Below, piece by piece: positions 7,055 through 59,797 of a stretch of 64,000 nt of DNA (positions are counted from its first letter, which is position 1; the number at the start of each line of letters is the position of its first letter). Location: positions 28,629 to 92,628 of the forward strand of contig CAMAVZ010000003.1 of NCBI GenBank assembly GCA_945861645.1. Reading direction: 5' to 3'. The stretch comes from Opitutus sp. GAS368 (GTDB lineage: Bacteria > Verrucomicrobiota > Verrucomicrobiia > Opitutales > Opitutaceae). The notes below the pieces were generated by a model. That model saw only the letters and a list, made by a program, of their open reading frames with translations. It was not told the origin of the DNA and did no database searches. Both the position numbers and the translations under genes were made by a program.

Positions 7055-7074
7055 GGTGGCGGCAGTGGGGGTGC

Positions 7075-8938: not shown

Positions 8939-8974
8939 GGACAACGGCTCAGCGCCGGCTCACGCTGCCAGCGG

Positions 8975-30600: not shown

Positions 30601-30765
30601 CGGGCAAGTAGCGGGGAAAGAAATATTTTAGCGAAGGCTAAGTGACAAGATGCGCGAGTCGGCTCCAAAGACAAGACTCTGGCGATAGGCCGATGGGATT
30701 AAAGGACGGATTTATTTGGGCTGGTTTGCCGCAAGCGGGAAAGCTAGAACTCATTCTTTAGATTT

Positions 30766-32390: not shown

Positions 32391-32647
32391 ACTTGAGCAT
32401 CCAAGGGCGGCAAAAATAATTGTAACAGATTTTGCCGGCTGGGGCGTGGTGTAGGAAACCCCTGCGGTCCTCCCTTGGAGTATTTTTACAGCTGAATGCT
32501 TACCCCTGTTATTTTTAAAAAAATATTTGCGAACGATTAGGCAAGGGTATGTTTGTTGCCTTTACGCAACAACTAAGGTTAAAATCTTAGTTAACCTTCA
32601 CTCGACTCGGTCGTCCACATTCTGTGGGGGGCCAATCACAACACACC

Positions 32648-35833: not shown

Positions 35834-35856
35834 TCACTCAGTGATTATTTTTACGC

Positions 35857-35884
35857 GCCGCCGTGCAACTCTGCGCACGGCGGC
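35857..35884 (+). other. Intercistronic hairpin between the TBDT and the first multi-thioredoxin gene
   Basis: GCCGCCGTGC-aactctgc-GCACGGCGGC, with no U-tract immediately after it. Confidence 0.6.
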
Positions 35885-35904
35885 CTGGCTGTTTTATTTT
35901 AGTT

Positions 35905-38364: not shown

Positions 38365-38397
38365 ATTTTTGCATACCCAGCCGTTTTTCCCCCGATC

Positions 38398-40224
38398 ATG
38401 AAATTAATTCATTCACTCGTATTTGGTGTTTTCAGCTGCGTTGCCACTCTGGCTTGGGCCCAGATGCAAACGGCAAAGTCAGTTAACCAACCAATCGCTA
38501 CGCTCGCCGCTGGCGCGGTCGCGCCAGATTTCGCGATGCATGACATTCACGACCAGGAGGTCCGCCTTTCGTCCTTCAAGGGCAAAGTCGTCATTCTCGA
38601 TTTCTGGGCGACGTGGTGCGGACCATGCATCGCCTCGATGCCGCACACCGATGAGATCGCCGCGAAATACAAGGATCAGGAGGTCGTCGTCGTGGCCTCC
38701 GGCACGAGCGACACCATCGCCATGTTCAAGCAATGGATTCCGGCGAACCAGTCGAAATTTCCAAACCTGCAATTCTTTTTTGACCTCAACGAGCGCGGCG
38801 CAGCCACCTTCGAGGAGCGGGCTTCGAGCAAGCTTTACGGGGTCGTTGGCATTCCCTCGCAGTTTGTCGTTGGTCGGGATGGTGTGATCACGGCGACGAT
38901 TGTCGGCAACGGCGGTAAAGAGGACGCCCGCACAGAGGCTGCGCTAGCGAGGGCGGGGGTGAAAGTGGATGCCGCGCGCGTTGCCGCGGGAGAGAGGCAG
39001 CTTAAGGCTGCTGCAGAGGATGCGGCCGACCGTCTGGCCGCGATCGAGGAGGAGAAAAAAAATCCCAAGCCAAAATTCCGTGAAGGCTTTGCTCAGCTGC
39101 AGCGAGGTTTGCCAGTGCCAGATTTTACCGCGCAGGCTGTTGATGGCTCTGCGGTCAAATTTTCTGAGCTCACTCAGGGCAAGACGGTGGTGTTGATGGT
39201 CTGCTCGGCGCGTGGCGCTCGGCCTGACGATATGGTGGCTTTTCAAGATGCTTGGGCCCGCCGCTATGCCGATCAGGGCGTCCTGTTTGTCGAGCTCGCC
39301 GCTTATGGCTCACGCGCTGACTTTGATAAGTATCATGCACCTGCGGCCGCCAAGCTGGCCTATCCGGTGCTGTTCGACCCGGCCGGGGCGGCGCCGAAGC
39401 CGGCCAAAGAGTCCATGGACGAAATGACAGCCGAGGATAAAAAAGCTTTCCGGGAGGCCAATCGCGCGCACTACAGCAAGGTCATCCCCATGGCGTTCTC
39501 TGGCGGCGCCATGGCGCCGGTCCCGAACAATATTGTCATCGACGCCCAAGGCAAATTCCTCGGTTTCTATGTGGGCAGTGGCCCGCAGAGCGCCGAATCA
39601 CTCGGCAATTTGCTCCTCCGCGCGGGGGTGAAGCTAAAGCCGGAAGATAGGCCAAAGAAGATCTTCTCCGCGGAGGAGACAAAGGAGAAGCCGCCGGAGG
39701 CCAAGGTGCCGATGCTGAAAATTGGTGACGCGGCCCCTGATTTTATCGCCACCGACGCCACCGGCAAAGCCGTGAAGATTTCTGATTATCGCGGCAAGGT
39801 CGTCATTCTTGATTTTTGGGCTACCTGGTGCGGACCCTGTATCGCTTCGATGCCGCATACTCAGGAAGTGGCGGCTCATTACAAAAATCAAGGAGTCGTG
39901 GTGCTGGCTTCGTGCACCTCCGATGATCGCAAGAAATTCGATACTTGGGTGAAGCGGAATCAGGAACAGTATCCCGATATTAATTTTTCGCATGATCCGC
40001 AGGAGCGCGGGCCTAATCGGGCCTCGCATAAACTCTACGGGGTCGGCGGCATCCCGCAGCAGTTCATCATCGATCGTGACGGCAAAGTCGCTGCGCTCGT
40101 CACCGGCTACCTCAAGGGCGAGTCCATTCTCGATGCCGCGCTGGCGAAGGCTGGAATCAAGGTTGATCCCGCTCTCATCGCCAAAGGCGCCGAGGATCTA
40201 AAAAAGCGCGAGTCCATGCGCTGA
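38398..40224 (+). CDS. Exported multi-domain TlpA/redoxin protein (3 thioredoxin-fold domains, 2 with WCGPC)
   Basis: Signal peptide; WATWCGPC at ~38605 and ~39817; middle domain has VCSARGARP. Confidence 0.88.
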   Translation: MKLIHSLVFGVFSCVATLAWAQMQTAKSVNQPIATLAAGAVAPDFAMHDIHDQEVRLSSFKGKVVILDFWATWCGPCIASMPHTDEIAAKYKDQEVVVVASGTSDTIAMFKQWIPANQSKFPNLQFFFDLNERGAATFEERASSKLYGVVGIPSQFVVGRDGVITATIVGNGGKEDARTEAALARAGVKVDAARVAAGERQLKAAAEDAADRLAAIEEEKKNPKPKFREGFAQLQRGLPVPDFTAQAVDGSAVKFSELTQGKTVVLMVCSARGARPDDMVAFQDAWARRYADQGVLFVELAAYGSRADFDKYHAPAAAKLAYPVLFDPAGAAPKPAKESMDEMTAEDKKAFREANRAHYSKVIPMAFSGGAMAPVPNNIVIDAQGKFLGFYVGSGPQSAESLGNLLLRAGVKLKPEDRPKKIFSAEETKEKPPEAKVPMLKIGDAAPDFIATDATGKAVKISDYRGKVVILDFWATWCGPCIASMPHTQEVAAHYKNQGVVVLASCTSDDRKKFDTWVKRNQEQYPDINFSHDPQERGPNRASHKLYGVGGIPQQFIIDRDGKVAALVTGYLKGESILDAALAKAGIKVDPALIAKGAEDLKKRESMR

Positions 40225-44525: not shown

Positions 44526-45608
44526 ATGGCCAACCCCCTTGCTATTCGTCCCACCGGTGCGCTCGATTTTCTGTCCCTGGGCGCCCTCGTGCACCGCCTA
44601 GATCCGGGCATCATGCCCTTTCGCAAGGCGCAGCACTGCGATATTCATGTCAGCGGGGGGGAATTTAATGTAGCCGCCAATCTCTCCGATTGTTTTCGCC
44701 TCAAGACGGGCGTCGCCTCGGCCATGGTTGATTATCCGGTGGGTGATTTGATTGCGGAGCGTGTGCGCGCGATGGGGGTAACCCCTTTTTATAAAAAATT
44801 TAAACACGACGGCGTCCGCGGACCCAACATGGCCACCGTGTATTCTGATCGTGGGCAAGGCGTGCGCGGCCCAGTGGTTTTTTATAATCGCAGCAACGAA
44901 GCTGCCGCCCAGCTCAAGGCGGGTGATTTCAATTGGGCAGAAATCTTTGGGGGTGGGGTGCGCTGGTTTCACAGCGGGGGCATTTTTGCGGCGCTCTCGG
45001 ACACCACGGGCGAGTTGATCGTCGAGGCGATGCAAGCCGCCAAGGCCGCGGGCGCGGTGACCTCCTTTGATTTAAATTACCGCCAGAAATTGTGGGATAT
45101 CTGGGGTGGCCAGACCAAGGCGCTCAATGTGCTGGGCCGGATCGTCGAACACGTCGATGTCCTCGTGGGCAATGAAGAAGATCTACAGAAGGGCCTCGGC
45201 ATCGAGGGCCAAGATGTGGAGAGCAAGGGGAAGCTCGACCCTTCCGCTTTTTATGCGGTCATCGATAAAGCCGTGAAGAAGTTTCCGAAGGTTAAAGCCG
45301 TCGCTACCACATTGCGCGAAGTGCATTCTACGAATCGCCATACGTGGGGCGCGGTCGCTTGGATCAAGGGTCAAACCTATCAATCCCCGATGTGCGAGCT
45401 TGATGTCGTTGACCGAGTTGGCGGGGGCGACGGTTATGCGGCCGGCTTTATTTATGGATTATTGACCGGCGCCTCCGAACAAGAGTCCGTTAATCTTGGC
45501 TGGGCACATGGAGCGCTGCTCACTACGTTCCCCGGGGATACCAGCATGGCGACCGTGGAGCAGGTGCGCGCTTTTGCCCAAGGTGGCTCCGCTCGCATTC
45601 AGCGCTAA
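44526..45608 (+). CDS. kdgK: PfkB-family sugar kinase, 2-keto-3-deoxygluconate kinase-like (paralogue A)
   Basis: GGEFNVA, WFHSGGI, SFDLNYR, GNEED, DRVGGGD, PGDTS; hexuronate context. Confidence 0.8.
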   Translation: MANPLAIRPTGALDFLSLGALVHRLDPGIMPFRKAQHCDIHVSGGEFNVAANLSDCFRLKTGVASAMVDYPVGDLIAERVRAMGVTPFYKKFKHDGVRGPNMATVYSDRGQGVRGPVVFYNRSNEAAAQLKAGDFNWAEIFGGGVRWFHSGGIFAALSDTTGELIVEAMQAAKAAGAVTSFDLNYRQKLWDIWGGQTKALNVLGRIVEHVDVLVGNEEDLQKGLGIEGQDVESKGKLDPSAFYAVIDKAVKKFPKVKAVATTLREVHSTNRHTWGAVAWIKGQTYQSPMCELDVVDRVGGGDGYAAGFIYGLLTGASEQESVNLGWAHGALLTTFPGDTSMATVEQVRAFAQGGSARIQR

Positions 45609-45717
45609 ATGGTGGGGTCGGGGAGCGGACGGGGGTTCGCCCTGGCGCTGGGCTCGCCTGGGTTAAGCGAGAATTTCGGCTTCCGCTGTTGCGGGTAGCG
45701 CCTTAGTGTGGACGACT

Positions 45718-46260
45718 ATGAGTAACACGGTTCGACCAGCTTTTATTTTATCCCGCGCCGGGTGGCGTGAGACCACCATCTTGTTGGCCGTTGCGGGGCT
45801 CATCCCGTTTTTGGTTCACCTGCTCCCGTGGTCAGGGCATCGACCACTCGGGGTTTATCTGCTGCCGGTATTTTGGACAACTTTTGTGGCCGTATATTTT
45901 CGGGGCCCGTTCATCGGCTTGCTCGTCGGGTTAGTTACTCCCGTGATTAACCTGCTGGTGACCGGTTTGCCGGTCTCGACGAGTCTCATGGCCCTGAGTC
46001 TAGAAATCGCCTTTTTTGTCGTGGTGGCGGCGCAGTGGCCGCGATTCCGCTGGGCCGCGCCGCTCGCGTGGGTAGCCGCGAAAGGCCTGGCGGTTAGCGT
46101 GCAATATTTCATCCCGGCTTTTATGGAGACGGAATATCCTTGGCAGCATCTCGCTCGTTCGACGCAGAATGCCGGCGCGGGTCTAGCGGTGCTCGCCGCG
46201 ATTAATATCCTGCTCGTTATTTTTTATCCGCCGGCGGATGGCTGGGAAAAAGAAGTCTGA
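45718..46260 (+). CDS. Hydrophobic membrane protein, ECF S-component-like
   Basis: PFLVHL, G..LLP, GLL.GL.TP.IN.LVTG.P pattern; ~5-6 TM. Confidence 0.55.
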   Translation: MSNTVRPAFILSRAGWRETTILLAVAGLIPFLVHLLPWSGHRPLGVYLLPVFWTTFVAVYFRGPFIGLLVGLVTPVINLLVTGLPVSTSLMALSLEIAFFVVVAAQWPRFRWAAPLAWVAAKGLAVSVQYFIPAFMETEYPWQHLARSTQNAGAGLAVLAAINILLVIFYPPADGWEKEV

Positions 46261-46294: not shown

Positions 46295-47389
46295 TTACCG
46301 CACTACGCGGGCGTCGCCGCCCTGCATGAGTTTCTCCACTTCCTTCTGGGTCACCATCGAAGTGTCCCCCGGCGTCGTCGAGGCCAAAGCGCCATGCGCT
46401 GCGCCATAATCAACGGCTAGTTGAGGATCATTCTTAGCGAGAAAACCAAACTGCAGTCCGGAGGCAAAGGAGTCGCCCCCGCCGACGCGGTCCAGAATTT
46501 CGAGTCCAGGATAAGCGCGGCTGTCATAGAATTTGCCGTCGTGATAAAGGATCGCGCCCCAATCATTTTTGGTCGCAGTGATCACGTGGCGTAAGGTGGT
46601 GGCCGCCACTTTGAAATTAGGAAATTCTGCCACGGCGGTTTTAATCATCGTCTTGAAGGCATCCGTCTCGAGGTGCGCCAGCGTGTCGGCTCCTTTTACC
46701 GCGAAGCCAAGTGAGGCGGTAAAATCTTCTTCGTTGCCGATCATGACATCAACAGAGCGAGCGATCTCGCGATTGACCTCCTGCGCTTTCTTGAGGCCGC
46801 CAATCGATTTCCAGAGGGAAGGGCGGTAATTCAGATCATAGCTGACGATCGTGCCGTATTTATTCGCGGCCTTAACCGCCTCGACCGTGAGGGCGGCGGT
46901 TGACGGAGAGAGGGCCGCAAAAATCCCCCCCGTATGAAACCAACGCACGCCTTGTTGGCCAAAAATGTCATCCCAGTCGAAGTCGCCCGGTTTAAGTTGT
47001 GAGGCGGCGGTGTTGCCGCGATCGGGTACGCCAACCGCACCGCGCACGCCGAAGCCCCGCTCGGTAAAATTAAGGCCGTTGCGCACGATGCGGCCGATGC
47101 CGTCATCCTCGCGCCACTGGATAAAATCGGTGGCCACACCTCCTTGCATAATAAAATCTTCGACGAGATGGCCGACTTCATTGTCGACGAAGGCAGTGCA
47201 GACCGCGGTTTTTAGATTAAAGCATTTCCGGAGGCCGCGGGAGGTATTGTATTCGCCGCCACCCTCCCAGGCGGTGAAAGCGCGGGCGGTACGGACGCGG
47301 CCCTCGCCAGGATCGAGGCGTAGCATGACTTCACCGAGTGAAAGCTGATCCCAGCGGCAAGAACTAGCGGGGCGAATTTTTAGTGACAT
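46295..47389 (-). CDS. kdgK: PfkB-family sugar kinase, 2-keto-3-deoxygluconate kinase-like (paralogue B)
   Basis: LGEVMLRLDP, GGGEYN, WFHTGGI, SYDLNYR, GNEED, DRVGGGDSF, TPGDTS; same strand and downstream of uxuA and eda. Confidence 0.85.
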   Translation of the reverse strand: MSLKIRPASSCRWDQLSLGEVMLRLDPGEGRVRTARAFTAWEGGGEYNTSRGLRKCFNLKTAVCTAFVDNEVGHLVEDFIMQGGVATDFIQWREDDGIGRIVRNGLNFTERGFGVRGAVGVPDRGNTAASQLKPGDFDWDDIFGQQGVRWFHTGGIFAALSPSTAALTVEAVKAANKYGTIVSYDLNYRPSLWKSIGGLKKAQEVNREIARSVDVMIGNEEDFTASLGFAVKGADTLAHLETDAFKTMIKTAVAEFPNFKVAATTLRHVITATKNDWGAILYHDGKFYDSRAYPGLEILDRVGGGDSFASGLQFGFLAKNDPQLAVDYGAAHGALASTTPGDTSMVTQKEVEKLMQGGDARVVR

Positions 47390-47476
47390 GGTAGACGGGA
47401 GTAAAAGTCGGTGAGGCGAGGACGATTGGTAAGGGAGTCATGGCCAAAGCCAAGTTTGGAACGAGGCGGGCGGCGC

Positions 47477-48526
47477 TTACGGAGCTGCGGTCAAAGCCTG
47501 CTGGTAGGCCCAGAGCATCTTGTTGGCGACGTAGCGGTCGATGGCGGGATAGCCGTTCGTGACGGTGTCGCTTTCGTGGAGCAGTTCTAGGCCGTGGTCA
47601 GAGCGGAAAATTCCATCCCAGCCGATGGCGACGAGCGTGCGCATGACCTGGAGTAAATTAACGTTACCGGTTGGATCGGCATGATCCGCTTCGTGGAAGC
47701 GTTTTTCACCTGTGGTTTTAACGCTGCGCAAATGCATCCACGCAATGGAATCCTTAAATTCACGAATCATGCCAATGATATCGTTACTCGGCTCCGCCCC
47801 GTAGCTGCCGGTGCAGAAGCACAGCGCATTCGCGCGGTGCGGGTGTAGCGCGAGGAGTCGCCGAATCTGCGCGGCGTTGCCGAGGTACGCGGGTAGGCCC
47901 AAATAACCCCAGGGCGGATCATTGGGGTGGGCAGCTAAGCGCATGCTCCGCACGGCCGCGGCGGGAACGAGGGCATCGAGCACGTAGCGGGCATTTTTCC
48001 AGAAACCCTCTTCGCCACATTTCGCGTAGGCTTGTTGCAGTGCGCGAAAATCTTCGGCGCTGTAACGTTTCGACCAGCCCGGTAGAAAAAGTCCACGTGA
48101 TAAATCAATCCGGTCCATCGCAGCGTGATCATAGGCGAGGCCCCGCGTGCCGTTCGCATGAAGATGGGCCACGGCGGTCCGCCCCCAATCGAGCGGCATG
48201 AGATTATAGGTGATGATGATCTCGGGCTCGTCCGGGAAAACTTCCCGCAGGTGATCGAGGGTCTTAATATAATTTTCGATGTGCTCATCACGCTCGGGGC
48301 GGCCGAGCTTCATCGCATCAGTCCAAAAAACACTTTCGATCGGGCCAAGACGCAGTCCGTGTTCGGTCAGTTCCGTGCGCAGCAGTTGTAAATCCTCGCG
48401 GGACCAAGCTTCCCCCGGCGGAACATGCCCGAGATGAGTCACGACGAGGGGTCGCGGCATCATTTGGCGCAGCCAGACGAGTGGGACGCGATCGGAGTGA
48501 CCGTACCAGCGAAAGGAGGTTTGCAT
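47477..48526 (-). CDS. uxuA: Mannonate dehydratase family protein (divergent)
   Basis: FRWYG..D.V.L, IES, YN.MP.DW.RT, LPGW, HPNDPP, CTGSYG, HLRSV, RSDHG. Confidence 0.82.
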   Translation of the reverse strand: MQTSFRWYGHSDRVPLVWLRQMMPRPLVVTHLGHVPPGEAWSREDLQLLRTELTEHGLRLGPIESVFWTDAMKLGRPERDEHIENYIKTLDHLREVFPDEPEIIITYNLMPLDWGRTAVAHLHANGTRGLAYDHAAMDRIDLSRGLFLPGWSKRYSAEDFRALQQAYAKCGEEGFWKNARYVLDALVPAAAVRSMRLAAHPNDPPWGYLGLPAYLGNAAQIRRLLALHPHRANALCFCTGSYGAEPSNDIIGMIREFKDSIAWMHLRSVKTTGEKRFHEADHADPTGNVNLLQVMRTLVAIGWDGIFRSDHGLELLHESDTVTNGYPAIDRYVANKMLWAYQQALTAAP

Positions 48527-48581
48527 CAGAAAATTTCAGCGATGAGCCGGCGAAGAAATAAACTACTGAATGGTTTACTCA

Positions 48582-49217
48582 TTAAACTTTAGCGGCGGCG
48601 GCGACAAATTGCTGAGCGCGCGCCGTAATCGCGGGCCAATCGCGGGCCTTGAGCGCGGCGGCTGAGACGAGGGCGCTGCCGGCGGCAGTGGCGAAGGCTC
48701 CGGCTTGAAGAAATTCACCAACCGTCTCAGGCGTAACGCCGCCCGTGGGCATGACCTCGATCTGGGGGAACGGGGCTTTCACCGATTTAATATAAGTGGG
48801 GCCAAAAAATTCGGCGGGAAAAATTTTCACGATATCGACGCCGAGTTCCCACGAGGTATAAACTTCGGTCGGCGTGAGCGCGCCACCCAGGACCGGCACG
48901 CCCAGCTCCTTGCACACGGCGATGACTGCGGGGCGCACGGCGGGAGTGACAATAAATTTGGCGCCAGCGGCGATGCCGGCGCGGGCGGTGGCAGCGTCGA
49001 GCACCGTGCCCAGACCCAGTAGAATATGCGGCAGCTCGCGGGAAACTTGGGCGCACAGCTCAAGCGCGCCCGGAGTGGTCATGGTGAGTTCCAAGCAATT
49101 GAGCCCCCCGGCCGAGAGCGCACGCGCGCAGTCGAGCAGACTAGCTGGGCTATCGGCCCGAATGAGCGCGATGACTTTTTCCGCCTTAATTTTAGCGAGG
49201 ATTTCAGTTTTGTTCAT
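48582..49217 (-). CDS. eda: KDPG/KHG aldolase
   Basis: ELTMTTP, GLGTVL, GAKFIVTP, TPTE, KIFPA, MPTGGV. Confidence 0.93.
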   Translation of the reverse strand: MNKTEILAKIKAEKVIALIRADSPASLLDCARALSAGGLNCLELTMTTPGALELCAQVSRELPHILLGLGTVLDAATARAGIAAGAKFIVTPAVRPAVIAVCKELGVPVLGGALTPTEVYTSWELGVDIVKIFPAEFFGPTYIKSVKAPFPQIEVMPTGGVTPETVGEFLQAGAFATAAGSALVSAAALKARDWPAITARAQQFVAAAAKV

Positions 49218-49345
49218 GGAAGGAAGGGAGCGTGAGTCACGAAAATGGGGTGATGAATTAAAATTATGTCCACGACCATCAAGGCGCGGGCGGAGCGAGT
49301 TTGATCATGTTAACGGCGCGCTACTCAATCGTTGCGCCTGTCATA

Positions 49346-50641
49346 TCAGGCTCCACCCGCCCACTTCGGTTTCTGGCGCAGATGGTAGAGGCGTTCACCG
49401 GCCTTGGGTTCGTAGAAAATTCCTTCGGCCTCGCGATTGGCGTAGTCGGCCGGGTTAATCGTGCGCCAGTCGCGGTAGCCGAGATTAATTTTTTTGCACG
49501 TCGCTTCGGGGATCCCGGTGGCAAGGGTCACGCGGACGCGCGGGTTTTCGCGGCCCGTCTTTTCATCGTAGGTCCCGATGCCATGCACGTGGGTGGAGTG
49601 AGCCATGGTGCCCCACGGTTCAGCCTTAAATTTATCCCATTGTTTGAGGAAATATTGCACGCAGTGGTAGCCGAGGCGCTCGATCATCTGGCCGTGGACG
49701 AGGGAGATCTCGTGGATGTGCGGCGCGTAAATGATCAACTCCCCGCCGTCCGCCACGATGGGCTCGAGTTTGTACATGCATTTTCCGCCGACCCAGAGCT
49801 CATCATACATTTTCGGGGCGCACGATAGTACGGTATGAAAGGGGCGGTCTTTATAGGTGATGTGCAGCTCGCGGGAAAGTTCACTGGCGTCATCCCAGGC
49901 TTGTTCCGGCGTGCCCGCGAAGAGGCCCGCGAGTTCGCCGTGACCGTGTACCACTAAACAAAAGCAGAGCTTGGGGACGGTGACCATGGCGCCCGCGCGA
50001 TCGACTACTTTGCGGACGGCAGTCCATTTATTGCCGATGATCATCGGGTTGGTGACGACGGCGCCGAGCCAATGGAAGAAATTTAAAATGCCGGGGCCCG
50101 CGACCCCCGGGAAAAGATATTTATTGCCGCCAGAAAAACCGACAACTTCGTGGGGGAAGACGGGACCACAAATAATGATTTGGTCGTAGTCGAAAAGGCT
50201 TCGGTTGATGTGCACCGGTACATCCATGGCGAAGAGGCCACCGGAGAGAGTCTTAATGTCCTCGGCGGGGATTGAGCCGAGGTCGCGGAGAGCCGCGGGG
50301 TTGTCCCATTCGTGATTAATGAATTCTACGCTTTGATAAGTAGACGCGCGTTCCGCGGCCGTAATTTCCACGCGTTCATTGATCGCCTCCTCGGTCATCG
50401 CGGGGTGGGTACCGAGCGCGAGCATGACATCAAATTTTTTGGCGACGCCCGCGATTTGGTTAAAAAGCGTTTTGAACATTAAGCCAACGGGCGCGGTGCG
50501 GGTGGCATCGGGGATGATGAGGACAATTCGTTGGCCGCGGTAGTTGGCTGCCGGGCAGGCCGATTGGACGAAGGCGCGCACTTGCTCAGCGGTGAGCGCT
50601 TGGCCGGTCGGCGCGAGGGAGCGATAGGGAGCGAGGGCCAT
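49346..50641 (-). CDS. LarA-family (nickel-pincer nucleotide dependent) alpha-hydroxyacid racemase/epimerase
   Basis: IPDATR, ALGTH, FPHEVVGFSGGNKYLFPG, FHW and GGK correspond to the LarA Asp/Arg, His, His...Lys, His and Lys catalytic/cofactor positions. Start set at ATG 50641. Confidence 0.88.
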   Translation of the reverse strand: MALAPYRSLAPTGQALTAEQVRAFVQSACPAANYRGQRIVLIIPDATRTAPVGLMFKTLFNQIAGVAKKFDVMLALGTHPAMTEEAINERVEITAAERASTYQSVEFINHEWDNPAALRDLGSIPAEDIKTLSGGLFAMDVPVHINRSLFDYDQIIICGPVFPHEVVGFSGGNKYLFPGVAGPGILNFFHWLGAVVTNPMIIGNKWTAVRKVVDRAGAMVTVPKLCFCLVVHGHGELAGLFAGTPEQAWDDASELSRELHITYKDRPFHTVLSCAPKMYDELWVGGKCMYKLEPIVADGGELIIYAPHIHEISLVHGQMIERLGYHCVQYFLKQWDKFKAEPWGTMAHSTHVHGIGTYDEKTGRENPRVRVTLATGIPEATCKKINLGYRDWRTINPADYANREAEGIFYEPKAGERLYHLRQKPKWAGGA

Positions 50642-50942: not shown

Positions 50943-51773
50943 ATGCATATTCATGATACCAGTACCGCGAGCATCGCCGCTACCTTGCCCACGGAGGTAT
51001 TGCGCGCCGAGTTTCTCCTCAGCAATTTATTTGAGGTCGGCGCGGCTAATTTCCATTATTGGACGACGGATCGCACCATTGTGGGGGCAATTGTGCCGGG
51101 CGCAACCGCGCTCGAGCTGCCTAATCCTCCCGAGGTGCGGAGCACTTTTTTTCTCGAGCGACGGGAAGCGGGCGTGATCAATCTCGGCGGTCCGGGCACA
51201 ATTACAGTCGACGGGGTCATCCAAACCCTCGCGTCGCTCGATGGTCTTTATCTGGGGCGCGGGACCAAGATTGTTTCTTTTGCTTCGGGCTCGGCTGAGC
51301 AGCCGGCTCGTTTCTATTTCCTCTCTTATCCGGCGCACGCGGTTTACCCAGTGAGACACGTCGCTTTTCAAGCCGCCACGCCGGCTCGATTGGGAGCTGC
51401 CGTCACGGCGAATGATCGTACGATCTATAAATATTTTCATCCGGGCGCATTTCCAACCTGTCAGTTGGTCATGGGCTTCACGCGACTCGAGCCGGGCAGT
51501 GTGTGGAACACGATGCCGCCCCACACGCACTTGCGGCGCTCGGAGGTTTATTGTTATTTCCAGGTGCCAGCGGCTCAGGCCGTCTTCCATTTCATGGGCG
51601 CGCCGGCCACGACGCGTCACTTGGTCGTGCGCGATCTCGAGGCGGTCCTGTCACCGCCGTGGTCGATTCACAGTGGTGTCGGGACTGCCGCCTATAGTTT
51701 TGTCTGGGGCATGGGTGGGGAAAACCAAGAATTTGCCGACATGGATCCGGCCCCGGTGGCTAGCCTGAGCTAA
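50943..51773 (+). CDS. kduI: 5-dehydro-4-deoxy-D-glucuronate isomerase
   Basis: LRAEFL, FFLERREAGVINLGG, CQLVMG.T.L.PGSVWNTMPPHTH.RRSEVY, SPPWSIHSG, WGMGGENQ. Confidence 0.95.
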   Translation: MHIHDTSTASIAATLPTEVLRAEFLLSNLFEVGAANFHYWTTDRTIVGAIVPGATALELPNPPEVRSTFFLERREAGVINLGGPGTITVDGVIQTLASLDGLYLGRGTKIVSFASGSAEQPARFYFLSYPAHAVYPVRHVAFQAATPARLGAAVTANDRTIYKYFHPGAFPTCQLVMGFTRLEPGSVWNTMPPHTHLRRSEVYCYFQVPAAQAVFHFMGAPATTRHLVVRDLEAVLSPPWSIHSGVGTAAYSFVWGMGGENQEFADMDPAPVASLS

Positions 51774-51776
51774 CTC

Positions 51777-52544
51777 GTGAGCTCGATTCTTGATCGCTTT
51801 CGTCTCGACGGTAAAGTTGCGATTGTGACTGGGGCCTCGCGCGGCCTCGGTGCGGCGATGGCGCAAGCGCTGGCGGAAGCGGGGGCTGATCTGGTCCTGG
51901 TTGCCCGCGGGGATATGGCCGCGCTGGAAAAATCCATCGCCGCCCTCGGCCGCCGGAGTATCACGGTCGCAGCGGATGTCGCGGCGCCGACTGCGGCCGC
52001 TAAAATTATGGCCGCCGCAGTGGCCGCTTTTGGGCGGGCGGATATTTTGGTGAACAACGCCGGCATTATTCGTCGCGCCGGTTTTCTTGATTTTACCGAA
52101 CAGGATTGGCAGGAAGTGCTGGATGTTAATTTGAGCGGAGCCTTTCGACTGAGTCAGCATTTTGCGCGCGCGATTGTAGCGCGAAAAGGCACGGGCAAAA
52201 TTATCCACCTCGCCTCCATGCTATCCTTTCAAGGTGGGCTCCGCGTGGCTTCTTACACGGCGGCTAAAAGTGGTCTGAATGGTCTGACTAAACTCATGGC
52301 CAACGAGCTCGCGCCCCTGGGCATTAACGTCAATGCCATCGCCCCGGGTTATATGATCACGGACAACACGGCGGCCATACGCGCCGATGCCGCCCGCAAT
52401 CAGTCTATTCTTGATCGTATTCCCGCCGCGCGCTGGGGGGCCCCGGCTGATTTGGCGGGAGCGGTCGTTTTTCTAGCCTCACCGGCAGCAGATTATATGC
52501 ATGGCCACACGCTGGCGGTCGATGGGGGTTGGTTGGCCCGTTAA
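51777..52544 (+). CDS. kduD: 2-dehydro-3-deoxy-D-gluconate 5-dehydrogenase (SDR)
   Basis: TGASRGLG, NNAGIIRR, ASMLSFQGG, YTAAK, RIPAARWG, VDGGWLAR; follows kduI. Confidence 0.92.
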   Translation: MSSILDRFRLDGKVAIVTGASRGLGAAMAQALAEAGADLVLVARGDMAALEKSIAALGRRSITVAADVAAPTAAAKIMAAAVAAFGRADILVNNAGIIRRAGFLDFTEQDWQEVLDVNLSGAFRLSQHFARAIVARKGTGKIIHLASMLSFQGGLRVASYTAAKSGLNGLTKLMANELAPLGINVNAIAPGYMITDNTAAIRADAARNQSILDRIPAARWGAPADLAGAVVFLASPAADYMHGHTLAVDGGWLAR

Positions 52545-52550: not shown

Positions 52551-53771
52551 ATGAAAAAAACATTCTGTCGCTGGGCGCCGTTTATTTTGGCCATCACGCT
52601 GGCGGTCGCCGCGAGTGCTCTGACGGTCACCGTCACACAGCAACTCCCTGTAGCGCGCCCCGCGGAAACGATTACGGTGCCGTGGGCCGACGTGGCGCGC
52701 GCCTTGCCCGGCGCCTTGTTGCAGCAGCTCGCGGTTAAGGATGCGACCGGTCGCGGCTTGCCTTATCAAGTGACGAATATTGCGCCTCAAGCCAAGGATC
52801 CCAGTGGCGCGGGCGTCGCTTACGGGGAGCTAATTTTCCAGCATGATTTTGCGGCGGGCGAAAAATCTGCTACCTTCACGATCGAAAAAATTTCTACGGT
52901 CGCCCCCGTATTTCCGGCGCAGGTTTCTGCGCGTTATGTACCGGAGCGGCTCGATGATTTTGGCTGGGAGAATGACAAGATTGGGCATCGTACCTACGGA
53001 CCCGCGCTCGCGGCGCCCGCGCAGCCGGGCATTAATAAAGAAGTGTTAGTCACGAGCGGCCTCGATGTATGGTGTAAGCGGGTCAGCTATCCCATTGTCG
53101 ATCGTTGGTACAATAAAGGCCACGATCACTATCATAAAGATGAGGGCGAAGGCATGGATATGTACCAAGTGGGGGCTTCCCGCGGCTGCGGCGGCACGGG
53201 GGTTTGGATTAATCAGCAGTTATATGTCAGCCGGAATTATAAATCTTGGAAGGTCATCGCCAATGGTCCGATCCGGGCAATTTTTGAATTAACTTATGAG
53301 GCGTGGCCCGCGGGAGGCTTGATGGTCTCCGAGGTCAAACGCTTCACGGTCGATGCCGGTCATAATCTAGACCAGATTGAGAGCACCTTCACGGTGACCG
53401 GAGCAAAGGAAATCACCGTGGGTATCGGTCTGAATAAGACCCCCACCGACAAGGGCCAGGAACCGCAGGTCACCCTCACGCCCAATCCGGCAGACGGGAG
53501 CTTCACCCAGTGGATCGTCCAAAAAACTAACGGGTCGCTCGGCACGGCGGTCATCGTGCCTGCCGGGTTCCTCGGTTGGGCTGAGGACGAGCGCAATCAC
53601 CTGCTGCTCGCAAAGGTCGCGACCGGTCAGCCGCTGCGATATTATGCCGGGGCCGGCTGGTCTAAGGCCGGTGAATTCTCTACCCCGCAGGCTTGGAACG
53701 ATTATGTGGCCGCTTGGGCGGCACGTGCGGCTTGGCCCGTGCAAATTGCCCTCAGCCCCGCTAACAATTAA
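52551..53771 (+). CDS. DUF4861 family exported protein
   Basis: RYVPERLDDFGWENDKIGHRTYGP, SGLDVWCKR, YHKDEGEGMDMY.VG.S.G.GG, GPIR, YYAGAGWSK. Confidence 0.82.
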   Translation: MKKTFCRWAPFILAITLAVAASALTVTVTQQLPVARPAETITVPWADVARALPGALLQQLAVKDATGRGLPYQVTNIAPQAKDPSGAGVAYGELIFQHDFAAGEKSATFTIEKISTVAPVFPAQVSARYVPERLDDFGWENDKIGHRTYGPALAAPAQPGINKEVLVTSGLDVWCKRVSYPIVDRWYNKGHDHYHKDEGEGMDMYQVGASRGCGGTGVWINQQLYVSRNYKSWKVIANGPIRAIFELTYEAWPAGGLMVSEVKRFTVDAGHNLDQIESTFTVTGAKEITVGIGLNKTPTDKGQEPQVTLTPNPADGSFTQWIVQKTNGSLGTAVIVPAGFLGWAEDERNHLLLAKVATGQPLRYYAGAGWSKAGEFSTPQAWNDYVAAWAARAAWPVQIALSPANN

Positions 53772-53801
53772 GTCCAAGGTCCGCCTCAACCCCTGCGCTT
53801 C

Positions 53802-55142
53802 ATGACCACTATGGCTCCGTCCCCCTCCAGTCCCGTGATCGGCCGATACCGCTGGCGCATCTGCGCCGTGCTCTTCATGGCCACCACCATCAACTACATC
53901 GACCGGAATGTCTTCTCGTTTACGATGCTAGACCCCATCTTTCGTCACCAGATGCTGGGCATCCCGCTTGAAGTGCCCCTGACTGAGGCGGACATGGCGC
54001 TGTTCCGGGAGAAGATGAGCTTCTTGGATTCGATCTTCAAATACTGTTACGCCTTCGGCTTCTTGCTGGCCGGCTATATGATCGACCGCATCGGTATCCG
54101 CCGCGGCTATGCTGCTGGTATCACTGGTTGGAGCTTCGCGGCCGTCGGCCATGGCCTCGCGAGTTCCGTGCCCGGCATGGCCTGGGCGCGCGGTCTGCTG
54201 GGGGTCGGCGAGGCGTGCAATTTTCCCGCCGCCATTAAAACTGTGTCCGAGTGGTTCCCCAAAAAGGAGCGCAGCTTTGCCACCGGCGTCTTCAACGCTG
54301 GCGCGAATGTCGGCATCATCCTCACCGCTATTTTCGTGCCGCTGATCATCGCCCAGTGGGGCTGGCGGGCTAGTTTCATCCTCACCGGCGCCGTCGGCAT
54401 CCTCGTGCTCTTTTGGTGGCTGGCCGATTACCGCAAGCCTCATGAGCACCCCAAGGTCACGCCCGCCGAGCTCGCTCACATTCAGCAAGACGGAGCGCTC
54501 GACACCGAGCAGCCAGTCAAGTGGCGCGAGCTGATCCGGTACCGCGCAACTTGGGCGTTCGCGATTCCGAAATTTATGACCGACGCCATCTGGTGGTTCT
54601 ACCTGACGTGGTTGCCCACTTTCTTCAACAGTAACCCCGAGTTCACGACCAAGGTAGATTTGAAGCAAGTCGGTCTCCCGTTTCTTGTTATTTATTTAGT
54701 CTCGGACGGCGGCAGCATCTTCTTCGGCTGGCTGGCCACGAAATTCATCAGCCTCGGCTGGAGCGTGAATAAGGCCCGCAAGACCACCATGTTCATCTGC
54801 GCCGTCTCCGTTGTGCCCATCATCTTTGCTTCGATCACCAGCAGCCTTTGGGTCGCGATTGCCCTCATCGCCCTCGCTACCGCGGCGCACCAAGGCTGGA
54901 GCGCTAATCTCTTCACGACCGTTTCCGACCAGTTTCCCCGCCGCGCGGTGGGTAGCGTGGTCGGCATCGGTGGCCTCGCTGGTGGCCTCGGCGGTGCACT
55001 GCTTGCCGCCAAGGTCGGGTTCATCATCAACACCGGTGGCTACGTGCCGCTTTTCGCCATCGCGGCTTCCGCCTACCTCCTCGCTTTACTTGTTTTGCAG
55101 ACTCTGTCGCCCAAGCTGGAAGCAGTCCGACTGGCGGAGTGA
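53802..55142 (+). CDS. exuT: MFS hexuronate transporter (ExuT-like)
   Basis: RYRW.I...LF.ATTINYIDR, GEA.NFPAAIK.VSEWFPKKER, WWFYL.WLP, AHQGWSANLFT. Confidence 0.88.
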   Translation: MTTMAPSPSSPVIGRYRWRICAVLFMATTINYIDRNVFSFTMLDPIFRHQMLGIPLEVPLTEADMALFREKMSFLDSIFKYCYAFGFLLAGYMIDRIGIRRGYAAGITGWSFAAVGHGLASSVPGMAWARGLLGVGEACNFPAAIKTVSEWFPKKERSFATGVFNAGANVGIILTAIFVPLIIAQWGWRASFILTGAVGILVLFWWLADYRKPHEHPKVTPAELAHIQQDGALDTEQPVKWRELIRYRATWAFAIPKFMTDAIWWFYLTWLPTFFNSNPEFTTKVDLKQVGLPFLVIYLVSDGGSIFFGWLATKFISLGWSVNKARKTTMFICAVSVVPIIFASITSSLWVAIALIALATAAHQGWSANLFTTVSDQFPRRAVGSVVGIGGLAGGLGGALLAAKVGFIINTGGYVPLFAIAASAYLLALLVLQTLSPKLEAVRLAE

Positions 55143-55222
55143 TCCCAGACCTATTTACCCGCGGGGATTAATATGCACGTACGCGCAGCTAAATTTAAAC
55201 TGATTGAGCTAAAGGGAGTCTG

Positions 55223-56281
55223 ATGCAGCGGTCCGGCGTTCTCTGTCTGCTGGCGATCGGTGTCGTCACGACGGCCGGGGCAGAAGTGCGTTGGGCTGAC
55301 ATTAATCGCCAGCCCCCGGCCTGGTACGCTGGTTCGGCGGCGCACGTCATCGCTACGCACGTCCTTAGTTATCAGGCCCCGAGTGGCGGTTGGCCAAAAA
55401 ATATCGATATGACGCAACCGCTGTCTGCAGAATATTTGGCGGCCAAAGGATCCGCGGCACAGGCGGCGACCATTGATAATCATGCGACGACAACGCAGCT
55501 CAATTTTTTGGCCAAGGTCGTGGCCGCGACGGGTGATCTCACCTTTCGAGCGGCGTATGAGCAGGGCCTCGATTATTTGCTCACCGCGCAGTATCCGTCC
55601 GGCGGTTGGCCACAATTTTACCCGCTGCGGGCTGGTTACTATGCGCACATCACCTATAATGATAACGCGATGGTGAATGTGCTCGAGTGTTTGCGGGCTG
55701 TCGCCAGGCACAGCGGACCGAACGCCTTGGTTGATGCTCGACGTCAGGCGCGCGTGGCGGCCGCGGTTGAGCAGGGCATCGCTTGTCTGTTGCGAACCCA
55801 AGTACGTCAGGCGGGCAAGCTCACCGCTTGGGCGGCACAACATGATGAAGTCACCTTCGCGCCGGCCGGGGCGCGCAATTTTGAGCCGCCAGCCCTCACC
55901 GCTAATGAAAGTGTGGGGATTGTTAGATTTCTACTCGCGGTGCAGCGGCCCAGTCCGGCCATCGTGGCGGCGATCGAGGGCGCCGTGGCATGGTTGGAGT
56001 CAGTAAAAATTTCTGGTTACCGCCTTGACGATACCCCCGGCGCGGATGGTCGAAATGATCGCCACGTCGTGGCGGACCCAGCGGCGCCCCCGCTGTGGGC
56101 GCGCTTTTACGAGCTTGGCACCAATCAGCCGATTTTTGTCGGGCGCGATAAAATCGTGCATTACGATTATAATGAAATCGAGCGTGAGCGGCGCGTGGGT
56201 TATGATTATCTAGGAAATTGGCCGGCTAGGCTCCTCGCCCAAGATTATGTTGGCTGGCGGGCGCAGCAGTTTCGGCCCTGA
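55223..56281 (+). CDS. pelA: Pectate lyase, PL10 family
   Basis: Q..SGGWPKN, TIDNHAT, GGWPQFYP, ITYNDNAM, WAAQHDE, AR.FEP, WARFY, ERR.GY; signal peptide. Confidence 0.92.
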   Translation: MQRSGVLCLLAIGVVTTAGAEVRWADINRQPPAWYAGSAAHVIATHVLSYQAPSGGWPKNIDMTQPLSAEYLAAKGSAAQAATIDNHATTTQLNFLAKVVAATGDLTFRAAYEQGLDYLLTAQYPSGGWPQFYPLRAGYYAHITYNDNAMVNVLECLRAVARHSGPNALVDARRQARVAAAVEQGIACLLRTQVRQAGKLTAWAAQHDEVTFAPAGARNFEPPALTANESVGIVRFLLAVQRPSPAIVAAIEGAVAWLESVKISGYRLDDTPGADGRNDRHVVADPAAPPLWARFYELGTNQPIFVGRDKIVHYDYNEIERERRVGYDYLGNWPARLLAQDYVGWRAQQFRP

Positions 56282-56387
56282 AGCACTCGGGCCCCTGCGC
56301 GGGGGCGCTGCTGGGTCGCAGGTTAAATTATCGCTTGGCGCAAATTATGTGCTGACCTTCGCTGCGGATTGGATAAATAAATATCCG

Positions 56388-58610
56388 GTGCGCCTTTTTC
56401 CCCTTTTACTCACTCTCGGCCGATCCCGCGGTCGATGTGGGGGCTGGGCTGGGCTCTGGGGTGCCCTCTGGATTGCGGGGATCGCGCAGACGCCGGCCAT
56501 TCACGTCGGGGAGCGCGCGGTTGCCTTGCCAAAATTATTAGTAATCGAGCACGCGGGGGATGATCAGTTTGATGCCACCGGCATGGGGACGGTGGCAGAA
56601 GAGCTGCGCAGTGCGCCGTTTTCTAACGAGCTGACCGAGGTCGATTTTACCGGCGAGGAGGGACTCGGCGTTGAAATCTCCGCCGAGTTGGCCGCGATCA
56701 GCAGTGCGTCGCCCGCCGCGGCGGCGGCCGGGGAAACCCGGCTGAACCTCCGAGGTTTTCCTGCCCCAATTTTGCGCAACGGCTTCGCGCAACTGGGTAT
56801 TCTGGAAACGTTGAACATTAATGAGATTATCGTGATTCAAGGCCCGCTCGTCCCGGTGTTGGGTCGCGCCGCCCCCGGCGGCATCCAGAATTTCTTGACC
56901 ACACGGCCGTCCGCCAAGGAGCGCAATAAATTTGAGGCAGGGACGAGTACGGAGAATCGCCAACGGGCGAGCTGGGAGTCAACCGGCGCCCTCGTGCCTA
57001 AAAAAATCTGGCAGCGCTGGGCGGTTGATTGGTCCCGCAAGCTCGGCCCCGAGGAATTTGTGCGCGAAAATGATCTTACGGTGAGTGGCGCCGTGACCCT
57101 CAAGCATACGCGCGCGGCGAGTAGCTTGATCAGTGTTGATTACCGCCGCTACGACGGCAACCCAACTGCCGGCATTCCGGAATATAAATTGGCGGCGGGG
57201 CAGTTGGTGCTCGGGCCGTACTTACCCTTGGCTTATTTTAATAATAATGGACCTGATGCAGGCATCTTGCGGCAAAGCCTCGTCGTTGGCGCGCAATTTG
57301 AAGGGCAAATCAATCGAACTTGGGCACTGCGGGCCGCGGTCGAGGGCTGGTGGCGAGCCATTGATCAAGATCGGTTCACGGCGACGCAGTTGGTTCTAGC
57401 GACGGGTTTATTTGAAGGCACGCGCGAGCCGCGGCACATCGAGCAGCGCCAGCAGGCCTTGGCCACCCATGTTGAATTTAACGGCCGTTTTCGCACCGCA
57501 GGGATCGAGCACAAATTACTGAGCTACGTCGGGGTGACTTGGGGTGAATATGATCGGGTAGATCGCGCGTTGAGTCTCGCCGATCGGGCGGCGCTGCCAC
57601 TCTCAGTCCGCGCTTTTAACCCCTTGGCTCCTGATTATTATTTCCCCGCCTATACTCCTGATCTTTACGCGCGTCTCTTGACCGATCGGCAGGAGGCTGC
57701 CCGTTATACTTCGTGGGAACTCACCGATCGCGCGGCCTTTGATCGTGGCCGGACCGTGGTCACGGCGGGGCTCCGGCTCGATCAAGTAAACTTGGCGGTG
57801 CAGGATCATAAACCAAATGCACTCTGGCCTCAGCTCAGCGATCATACGGGGCAATTGAGTTATCACATGGGCGTCAATTATCAGTGGATCCCTCGGCGCG
57901 TCTTGCTCTTCGCCAGCGCCAGTACGGCCTTTGATCCCTCGACGCCCGTGGATGCCCGCACCGGGAGAATTCAGCAGAACGAAACAACCTTGGGGTATGA
58001 GAGTGGGCTCAAGGGACGGGCGCTCGCAGGCAAGGTTGATTACTCCGCTTCATTATTTGTGCTCTATAATCAGCATATCGCTCGCCGTAATCCGCTCTAT
58101 GATGATCCCGTTTTAGACGCGGCCCAAACGCAGCCCCAGTTGGTGGCGGCCGGCGAGGAGCGTTTTACTGGAGCGCGGGTTGATCTCCGTTATAAACTTA
58201 CGCCCCGGTTGACCGCGGCGCTGCGGGCGGTGCATCTTGAGGCAATTACTACGAAGTCGCCGTCGTTAGATCCTGAGGTGGGGCAACAACTGACGCGCCT
58301 GCCGGTCGACACCGCGACGGTGCAATTGCGTTATCTTCCACTGCTGGGCATGGCGGGATTTAGCAGCAGTGTCAGTTTCAGTTATCTCGGTTCCTACGTG
58401 GCTAATTATGGGGATGCGAAGCATGTTTATCTCGCTTGGCCAAATTATGGGCTGCTCACCCTCACCGGCGGCTACACGTGGAAGGTGGGCCCGCGGCGCT
58501 GCACCCTGGGGCTCAGTTTGCGCAATGCGCTGGCGCGGGATCTCGTGGCAAGCAACGCGCGGGTCGGATCACCCCGCGAATTGGGTGGTTCCGTGCGCAT
58601 CCTGTTTTAG
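56388..58610 (+). CDS. TonB-dependent receptor (no STN domain)
   Basis: Plug LRGF...RNG, GP....G...PGG..N..T.RP; barrel E.G.K and RN.L; terminal Phe. Start uncertain (GTG 56388). Confidence 0.8.
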   Translation: MRLFPLLLTLGRSRGRCGGWAGLWGALWIAGIAQTPAIHVGERAVALPKLLVIEHAGDDQFDATGMGTVAEELRSAPFSNELTEVDFTGEEGLGVEISAELAAISSASPAAAAAGETRLNLRGFPAPILRNGFAQLGILETLNINEIIVIQGPLVPVLGRAAPGGIQNFLTTRPSAKERNKFEAGTSTENRQRASWESTGALVPKKIWQRWAVDWSRKLGPEEFVRENDLTVSGAVTLKHTRAASSLISVDYRRYDGNPTAGIPEYKLAAGQLVLGPYLPLAYFNNNGPDAGILRQSLVVGAQFEGQINRTWALRAAVEGWWRAIDQDRFTATQLVLATGLFEGTREPRHIEQRQQALATHVEFNGRFRTAGIEHKLLSYVGVTWGEYDRVDRALSLADRAALPLSVRAFNPLAPDYYFPAYTPDLYARLLTDRQEAARYTSWELTDRAAFDRGRTVVTAGLRLDQVNLAVQDHKPNALWPQLSDHTGQLSYHMGVNYQWIPRRVLLFASASTAFDPSTPVDARTGRIQQNETTLGYESGLKGRALAGKVDYSASLFVLYNQHIARRNPLYDDPVLDAAQTQPQLVAAGEERFTGARVDLRYKLTPRLTAALRAVHLEAITTKSPSLDPEVGQQLTRLPVDTATVQLRYLPLLGMAGFSSSVSFSYLGSYVANYGDAKHVYLAWPNYGLLTLTGGYTWKVGPRRCTLGLSLRNALARDLVASNARVGSPRELGGSVRILF

Positions 58611-59770: not shown

Positions 59771-59797
59771 GGTGGGCCCAGTCACTTAAAGTGCCTA

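Follow-up and report, generated by a model that had tools for sequence, protein, structure and literature searches.

A predicted GntE-type LarA homologue kept by Opitutaceae that lack larB, larC and larE, and a candidate importer of its cofactor

LarA of Lactiplantibacillus plantarum (PDB 5HUQ) is a lactate racemase with a tethered nickel-pincer nucleotide, and the homologues of LarA have been treated as users of a cofactor made by LarB, LarE and LarC; the orphan case stressed in print is the reverse one, that of genomes with the cofactor genes but no LarA (PMC7583248, PMC11770544, PMC11796402, PMC13524815). Among these homologues, the structure 4NAR represents GntE2 (LarAH20) of Thermotoga maritima, a D-gluconate 2-epimerase (Desguin et al. 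2020, PMC7583248); the pectin regulon of this organism contains the gene order gnd-uxaR-uxaE-uxaD-gntE-gntK (PMC3750489), and GntE, whose activity has been demonstrated biochemically (PMC7583248), is proposed to convert mannonate to gluconate, which would then feed the pentose phosphate pathway (PMC7583248; PMC6978723). The present analysis concerns a LarA homologue encoded at 49346-50641 on the minus strand of a stretch of 64,000 nucleotides (the window, whose numbering is used for all coordinates unless a genome or locus is named), which lies on contig 3 of the genome of Opitutus sp. GAS368, a freshwater member of the Opitutaceae (2.30 Mb in 116 contigs, 84% complete), near-identical proteins of which bear names such as Lacunisphaera, Didemnitutus and Opitutaceae. 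The enzyme is a predicted GntE-type epimerase of the known uxaE-uxaD-gntE branch, in this case joined to eda-uxuA-kdgK; what sets the case apart is that the cofactor pathway is robustly absent across a lineage that keeps the enzyme unchanged. In the literature searched, genomes that encode LarA homologues but not the synthesis genes are not mentioned, though an earlier mention is possible, and no uptake of the pincer cofactor is described.

The 431-amino-acid product of the gene is matched by the Pfam model Lar_N (PF09861) with 75.6 bits against a cut-off of 23.3; the LarA C-terminal domain (PF21113) gives no Pfam match at E <= 0.001, and nonetheless the alignment to 4NAR, the closest solved relative (E 1.3e-61), covers residues 15-424, i.e., nearly the full length. 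The gene starts with an ATG, as in the orthologues, the open frame extending upstream to a TTG at 50746. In the alignment to 4NAR and 2YJG, with the LarA residue numbering taken from PMC7583248, the catalytic residues D72, H108, H174 and K298 of LarA correspond to D45, H79, H164 and K287, and the cofactor-binding residues R75, K184 and H200 to R48, K174 and H190; all seven are present, the initial annotation having noted recognisable catalytic/cofactor residues, and they are invariant in 21 of 21 aligned orthologues (45% to 86% identity). At the specificity positions, F175, F176, W358 and T359 of LarA are replaced by E165, V166, A347 and H348 (the helix-14 pair A347-H348 being mapped via sequence alignment to A351-H352 of 4NAR), and E, V, A and H are the residues usual in GntEs at these four positions, according to a rule whose source is Urdiain-Arraiza et al. 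2024 (PMC11770544). By these published criteria, that is, the relation to 4NAR and the E-V/A-H signature, the protein is therefore a predicted GntE; the comparison places it in the GntE branch of the LarA superfamily, with an intact catalytic and cofactor site. Since the seven residues are invariant and no conserved position differs from the orthologues of cofactor makers, the chemistry is presumed to be of the LarA type, in which a proton-coupled hydride transfer to the bound nickel-pincer pyridinium cofactor would take place.

The likeness to GntE2 comprises the same catalytic and cofactor residues, an acidic loop after the second histidine, the A-H pair in helix 14 and a gene context of uxaE, a gene (uxaD) for a short-chain dehydrogenase/reductase (SDR) and, in relatives, gntK (PMC3750489); the loop, however, reads E-S in GntE2 and E-V in the window's protein, the window's gene stands in an operon with eda, uxuA and the gene of a kinase of the 2-keto-3-deoxygluconate (KDG) type, and T. 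maritima has larB, larC and larE, whereas the window's lineage has none. GntE1 (LarAH19) of Corynebacterium glutamicum, which like the window's gene has a uronate-linked context (PMC7583248), and the uncharacterised group LarAH18 (NF052594) belong to the same hexonate-epimerase branch. The LarAH18 model, named 'putative hexonate epimerase', is the best NCBIfam match of the window's protein, at 179.8 bits so far under the cut-off of 500 that the two are not equivalogs. With LarA of L. plantarum the protein shares the fold family and the same seven residues, but the sequences are distant (E 2.6e-4) and the pocket is F-F/W-T in LarA and E-V/A-H in the window's protein.

As had been stated before for the window, none of the genes larB, larC and larE is found in it above cut-off, nor are they found above cut-off in the organism's own 84%-complete genome (model search, with T. 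maritima positive controls). Within the genus, the three genes occur together in only one of the 65 species genomes searched (G076, 72% complete), where larB-larC-larE lie on a single short contig (C358; L017-L019) and may be real or a binning contaminant. Among the members of the genus with a completeness of 90% or more, 20 genomes carry the orthologue, including the closed one-contig genome G082 and several that are 99-100% complete. In five near-complete genomes from four genera, the LarC domain PF01969 was found in none and neither LarB nor LarE gave a match above cut-off, only PurE-like and PP-loop background matches being obtained. The initial annotation had held that a genome lacking larBCE would refute its proposal; this lack is what was found, also in closed genomes of the genus.

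At the scale of the family, larC alone served as the pathway marker, larB and larE having been searched in the genus and in the five further genomes. The survey covered 352 Opitutaceae genomes, i.e., the window's own and 351 that are at least 90% complete. An orthologue of at least 70% identity is present in 54 other genomes of the family, of which three have larC (G133, G293, G298); where the orthologue is 47-64% identical, larC is present in 7/7 genomes, and outside the Opitutaceae it is found in 45 of the 50 Verrucomicrobiota genomes with an orthologue, the other five being of unknown completeness. In a quick maximum-likelihood gene tree, 19 larC-less and three larC-positive Opitutaceae sequences group together (SH-aLRT 97) in a clade that branches from within larC-positive lineages, which makes the loss a derived state. 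The genes larB, larC and larE are thus missing from the organism, from its genus and from nearly all of the Opitutaceae subclade that carries the gene, so that the cofactor is not made there by the known route.

The gene itself has been kept intact. The ratio of nonsynonymous to synonymous substitution rates (dN/dS) is 0.03-0.32 among the larC-less orthologues (40 least-diverged of 171 pairs), and in a comparison of the 19 larC-less with 52 larC-positive sequences only four alignment columns separate the two groups; all four are common to the three larC-positive Opitutaceae proteins, and they are therefore markers of the clade rather than of cofactor status. Changes at the cofactor site of the larC-less proteins were looked for and none was found. 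The missing cofactor genes might suggest a relic of larBCE loss, encoding an inactive apo-protein or a protein in a non-catalytic role; such an explanation is very improbable, given that the frames are intact in the 54 family genomes, that dN/dS is well below 1 and the active site invariant, and that the operon position is conserved, and a relic gene as such was rejected on the intact frames and the dN/dS values. Contigs from RNA libraries (four runs, three studies) also span parts of the locus, including parts of the LarA homologue gene; they are weak evidence on this point and weak support for expression of the operon, contigs in such libraries being no proof of transcription and parts without coverage carrying no information. 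We read the missing larBCE as a puzzle of cofactor supply and not as a disproof of the enzyme's identity, since the cofactor site has not changed and is kept by purifying selection.

A candidate for the supply is encoded close by, at 45706-46260 on the plus strand: a membrane protein of 184 amino acids (probable start ATG 45718) resembling the S components of energy-coupling factor (ECF) transporters. It is found in 98 of the 352 Opitutaceae genomes. Taking as LarA-bearing any genome with a LarA-superfamily protein, there are 145 such genomes, of which 48 have larC only, 80 the membrane protein only, two both (G133, G172) and 15 neither; the membrane protein is thus present in 80/95 larC-less and in 2/50 larC-positive genomes (Fisher p 1.6e-22, the genomes of one family being kin). 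Among the 207 LarA-less genomes, 20 have larC, 16 the membrane protein, 171 neither and none both. The membrane protein replaces larC in LarA-bearing Opitutaceae almost one for one. In the window's genus it occurs in exactly the 20 genomes with the LarA homologue (three of the 20 matches being weak) and in none of the 21 others, and in the five genera that contain both larC and the membrane protein (g46, g50, g66, g67, g71) the two are found in different genomes, except in G172. Outside the Opitutaceae the membrane protein was found in none of the 50 genomes with an orthologue, in a profile search made without a positive control, a result that is neutral for the idea of import.

In eight genomes belonging to two genera (G284, G286, G287, G291, G280, G282, G391, G395) the membrane-protein gene and that of the LarA homologue stand tail to tail, 21-500 bp apart; in the window's genus and in g45 the distance is 3-16 kb. 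Related copies adjoin a canonical LarA (Lar_N + LarA_C) in two genomes (G092, G097) and, in G300, a distant Lar_N protein of 553 amino acids. Copies thus stand beside three kinds of LarA homologue, and what these settings share is the enzyme family rather than the sugar acid. A gene for a phosphoribosyltransferase-domain protein of 129-146 amino acids directly follows that of the membrane protein in seven loci (L038, L050, L122, L123, L161, L163, L164).

Some of these loci have further features of their own. In two larC-less genomes (L122 of G092, 6447-9937, and L123 of G097, 5347-9763), genes for an aldo-keto reductase (397 aa), an S-component-like protein, a phosphoribosyltransferase (142 aa) and a canonical LarA are found together in this order, immediately downstream of a gene for a TonB-receptor plug protein. 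The aldo-keto reductase may belong to the pincer-dependent type recently described in PMC13524815. In L124 (G300, 6057-9985), the gene of the 553-aa protein, whose Lar_N match is faint, an ADP-ribosylglycohydrolase gene and an S-component-like gene lie on the same strand. The window's genome contains, on contig C65 (488-1723), a 39% identical homologue of this 553-aa protein (tblastn E 3.5e-65), which the Lar_N search of that genome had not reported.

The 15 LarA-bearing genomes with neither larC nor the membrane protein (G174, G175, G178, G182, G183, G184, G188, G202, G269, G273, G274, G313, G316, G317, G326), four of them 100% complete, weigh against the import of the cofactor by this protein; a family profile of the membrane protein found it in 0/15 of them, with 4/4 positive and 0/30 negative controls giving a match. 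These genomes may have a third source of the cofactor, or LarA homologues that are cofactor-free. The same genomes would suit, as would the absence of larBCE from genomes that are closed or nearly complete and in which purifying selection maintains the gene, an explanation in which the enzyme of the clade no longer uses the nickel-pincer nucleotide at all and works with another pyridine nucleotide, e.g., nicotinic acid mononucleotide or NAD, or with no organic cofactor, so that the loss of larBCE was harmless. This is unlikely: neither the lysine that tethers the cofactor (K174) nor the histidine that binds nickel (H190) varies, and with only the four clade-marker columns differing, a switch would have had to occur with an unchanged pocket. 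Furthermore, GntE1, GntE2 and LarAH15 are inactive without added pincer cofactor (PMC7583248, PMC11770544).

As to the nature of the membrane protein, its sequence matches to S components are weak, namely NF045596 with E 8.9e-4 (19 bits against a cut-off of 180) and PF12822 with E 0.95 (9.9 against 30.7 bits); its ESM look-alike clusters, with a score of 0.95, bear the name 'putative ECF transporter S component'. The AlphaFold (AF2) model has a pLDDT of 81 and a pTM of 0.76, and its best VIA-align rows are RibU, FolT, ThiT, CbiM, PanT and BioY (Z 7.3-10.4), S components making up 19 of the 20 top rows; the alignment to RibU covers 145 residues with Z 10.4, a level (Z about 10) that can arise by chance for helical bundles. 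A Foldseek search of the model against the PDB gave no match at E <= 0.001, the best having E 0.057, and the family profile gave nothing up to E 10 among the PDB sequences. In its likeness to known systems, the protein would be a small membrane protein of six helices, with a predicted fold nearest to those of RibU, FolT and ThiT (Z 9-10.4), although it differs from all S-component families in having no significant sequence match to any. Two polar residues within the helices, H34 and E96, are invariant across the wider family. The window's copy is without four residues, after 'VVVAA', that are present in 24/24 aligned homologues.

EcfT (PF02361) was not found in four of five genomes searched, including the closed G082, and is present in G289 only; the protein would therefore act alone, as a solitary S component. 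A precedent is BtuM, a solitary S-component-type importer of vitamin B12 whose host has no ECF module (PMC6072759). The 184-aa protein, for which solitary S components such as BtuM and BioY are the nearest known systems, occurs in genomes unable to make a metal cofactor by the known route. We tentatively propose, with rather less than even confidence, that the cofactor or a late precursor is taken up from outside, and that the solitary S-component-like protein at 45706-46260, coupled in some relatives to a small phosphoribosyltransferase, is the candidate importer. The broader picture, in which the nickel-pincer nucleotide (or a late precursor, e.g., the base) would be an exchanged micronutrient, and a large Opitutaceae lineage would have become auxotrophic for it, keeping its LarA-family enzymes at work by a previously unrecognised solitary S-component-type importer and, in some genomes, a coupled phosphoribosyltransferase that would rebuild the nucleotide, is a possibility to be held with still more doubt.

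The same absence of larB, larC and larE would also be explained if the cofactor were made inside the cell by an unrecognised route, non-homologous to LarB, LarE and LarC, in which the membrane protein and the phosphoribosyltransferase, translationally coupled in several loci, took part in the synthesis and not in uptake. This is quite improbable: two small genes are implausible for a carboxylation, two sulfur insertions and a nickel insertion, a search of the window's genome did not find the phosphoribosyltransferase, and the predicted fold of the membrane protein is that of substrate-binding transport subunits.

The proposal of import has itself to face several observations that count against it. 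No curated threshold of an S-component family is reached by its sequence, and the Foldseek E values are 0.06 or worse; the family-wide absence of the pathway is read from larC alone; and kinship among the genomes makes the Fisher p overstate the association. The membrane protein is also found in the 16 genomes that have no LarA homologue at all, and in two metagenome loci (L163, L164) it stands with the phosphoribosyltransferase among housekeeping genes. The phosphoribosyltransferase, in turn, is nearest to purine enzymes, and it was not found in the window's 84%-complete genome (tblastn, E <= 1e-5). Finally, the pincer cofactor is reported to be labile (PMC11796402), which makes an environmental pool doubtful. 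For the whole, i.e., a GntE-type epimerase working with an imported cofactor, in which the import part is conjecture, we consider the chances evenly balanced.

Turning to the metabolic setting, the LarA homologue is the first gene of a minus-strand run with eda, uxuA and a KDG-type kinase gene, which occupies exactly 46295-50641 (open reading frame listing, Pfam and NCBIfam), with intergenic gaps of 128, 55 and 87 bp, and is divergent from kduI-kduD on the plus strand, 301 bp away; the arrangement agrees to the nucleotide with that annotated initially. Eda (48582-49217, minus strand) is a 2-keto-3-deoxy-6-phosphogluconate (KDPG)/4-hydroxy-2-ketoglutarate (KHG) aldolase (Pfam Aldolase, 156 bits; TIGR01182, 188 bits, above cut-off), UxuA (47477-48526, minus strand) is a D-mannonate dehydratase (Pfam UxuA, 260.6 bits; NF003027, 286 bits, and TIGR00695, 207.7 bits, both above cut-off), and the third product (46295-47389, minus strand) is a PfkB-family kinase (Pfam PfkB, 56.5 bits) resembling KDG kinases, its best NCBIfam models being those of KDG and 2-keto-3-deoxygalactonate (KDGal) kinases, all below cut-off. 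A second PfkB-family sugar-acid kinase (Pfam PfkB, 64.9 bits; KDG/KDGal-kinase-like in NCBIfam, below cut-off) is encoded at 44526-45608 on the plus strand, upstream of the membrane-protein gene, which is thus flanked by two paralogous kinases; one of the two might have another sugar acid as substrate, e.g., gluconate or mannonate.

At the far end of the window lie three genes that recall the Thermotoga module, and whose presence had been correctly noted. The first (59892-60674, plus strand) encodes an SDR that is probably a fructuronate reductase/D-mannonate oxidoreductase of the UxaD/UxuB type, its best NCBIfam model being NF006132, D-mannonate oxidoreductase (237.6 bits, below the cut-off of 281). 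The second (60783-62603, plus strand) encodes a UxaE-like protein of 606 amino acids, a putative tagaturonate/fructuronate epimerase, for which the match is weak (Pfam UxaE, 33.6 bits with the cut-off at 27.1, confined to residues 323-459, and no NCBIfam match). The third is the gene of the uronate isomerase UxaC, which begins at 62694 on the plus strand and runs past the window's end at 64000 (PF02614, 585 bits at 62694-63995, corresponding to G000:C3:91322-92623 in genome coordinates). In such a hexuronate module, UxaC would yield tagaturonate or fructuronate, the UxaE-like epimerase and the SDR reductase would lead to D-mannonate, and the GntE-type enzyme would connect mannonate reversibly with gluconate, beside the UxuA route. 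Because the LarA homologue shares an operon with Eda, UxuA and the KDG-type kinase, mannonate could pass either via KDG and KDPG to pyruvate and glyceraldehyde 3-phosphate or to gluconate; gluconate could likewise enter via mannonate. A reversible mannonate/gluconate link beside the UxuA route is the most economical reading of this arrangement, and we consider it probable, though by no means certain, that the LarA homologue interconverts D-mannonate and D-gluconate at C2 as part of a Thermotoga-type hexuronate module. The step had been called unexplained in the initial annotation, a description that does not hold, since the module uxaE-uxaD-gntE(-gntK) is known from T. maritima (PMC3750489) and the activity of GntE has been shown (PMC7583248). 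The substrates suggested there were D-gluconate/D-mannonate, 5-keto-D-gluconate/D-fructuronate and a uronate inverted at C5; the first of the three fits best, given the GntE signature, the relation to 4NAR and the context of SDR, UxaE-like and UxaC genes.

The SDR also provides an argument for another native substrate, which could be 5-keto-D-gluconate/D-fructuronate, another hexonate or a phosphorylated hexonate, the enzyme still being a pincer-dependent 2-epimerase. The SDR scores about 200 bits with NCBIfam models of gluconate 5-dehydrogenase, and its best PDB match, 1VL8, which we take to be the product of T. maritima uxaD, was deposited as a gluconate 5-dehydrogenase; in the 5-keto-gluconate version of this alternative the neighbouring SDR would be such an enzyme. 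The two PfkB kinases of the locus can be counted on the same side, as can the existence of a 6-phosphomannonate 2-epimerase activity in L. suebicus (PMC6978723) and the Km of 120 mM of GntE1 for mannonate, which together with its uronate-linked context leaves the native substrate of that enzyme in doubt (PMC7583248). Nevertheless another substrate seems unlikely, considering that the E, V, A, H signature is assigned to GntEs (PMC11770544), that the gene is in an operon with that of a mannonate dehydratase and that the best NCBIfam model of the SDR is D-mannonate oxidoreductase. Against the mannonate/gluconate assignment it must be said that the protein is below the equivalog cut-off of the nearest NCBIfam model and that the putative substrate comes from a four-residue signature and the gene context.

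A further point against it is that the linkage to eda, uxuA and kdgK is missing outside the Opitutaceae. When 68 loci from other Verrucomicrobiota orders, with an orthologue 62-71% identical, were examined for neighbours, Eda, UxuA, KdgK and KduI/D were beside the orthologue in almost none, a single locus (L083, 1/68) having an Eda-like neighbour; an SDR 46-51% identical to that of the window adjoins the orthologue in 38/68, and in 35 of these 38 loci it is directly upstream on the same strand. The phylum-wide conserved neighbour of the LarA homologue is the SDR, and the conserved functional unit is a fructuronate reductase with the epimerase. The order larA-eda(-uxuA)-kdgK is kept in the window's genus and in one or two other Opitutaceae genera (L032, L033, L034, L041, L042-L047, L049, L129, L130, L135, L140, L160), and in other genera of the family the gene adjoins an SDR/UxaE-like pair or kduID (L035, L036, L039, L040), the UxaE-like gene travelling with the SDR in L035, L036 and L052. 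The linkage to uxuA and eda that had been proposed as a check of the pathway thus stands for a few Opitutaceae genera and does not extend across the phylum, where the SDR takes their place.

The Thermotoga-like pair gntE-gntK is completed in relatives by a gluconokinase of the thermoresistant type (TIGR01313), which is found above cut-off in four of the five genomes tested and lies, in three of them, 0.3-1.8 kb from the membrane-protein gene, within the hexuronate locus that also contains the LarA homologue (spans of gluconokinase and membrane protein: G164:C1:1957907-1959150; G082:C1:2019495-2022311; G024:C6:66842-69557). It was not found in the window's own 84%-complete genome; Edd and a gluconokinase of the FGGY type gave no match above cut-off in the five genomes.

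The rest of the neighbourhood is occupied by further genes, several of them assigned to pectin and uronate functions. On the plus strand follow KduI, a 5-dehydro-4-deoxy-D-glucuronate isomerase (50943-51773; NF002091, 365.9 bits, above cut-off), KduD, a 2-dehydro-3-deoxy-D-gluconate 5-dehydrogenase (51777-52544; TIGR01832, 348.3 bits, above cut-off), a DUF4861 protein, a major facilitator superfamily (MFS) transporter and a pectic acid lyase (52551-56281; Pfam DUF4861 283, MFS_1 181 and Pec_lyase 336.5 bits) and a TonB-dependent receptor (56247-58610; Pfam TonB_dep_Rec_b-barrel, 73 bits); an AraC-type regulator with a periplasmic-binding-protein-like sensor domain (Pfam Peripla_BP_3 and HTH_18) is encoded at 58607-59785 on the minus strand. 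At 28384-40224 the window also contains an unusual redox cluster, unrelated to the LarA locus, with a DsbD-like protein, an extracytoplasmic function (ECF) sigma factor with a FecR-like anti-sigma factor, a 1069-aa TonB-dependent receptor and two large proteins (833 and 608 aa) in which AhpC/redoxin-thioredoxin domains are repeated three to four times.

The significance of these observations for the metabolism of pectin and uronates is modest, the Thermotoga mannonate-gluconate branch being extended to the Verrucomicrobiota. For the cofactor, the situation is the opposite of the orphan case in print: LarA-family enzymes persist across many genera without the synthesis genes, almost always accompanied by a small transporter-like protein that excludes larC. 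The lineage-wide absence of the pathway and the replacement of larC by an S-component-like protein make the hypothesis of cofactor salvage directly testable. If import should prove wrong, the clade would be the best place to seek a LarA enzyme working without the pincer cofactor; if it is true, LarA homologues found in metagenomes would have to be interpreted differently, a means of loading LarA enzymes in heterologous hosts would be at hand, and the pincer cofactor would join the shared 'vitamins' of freshwater and soil communities.

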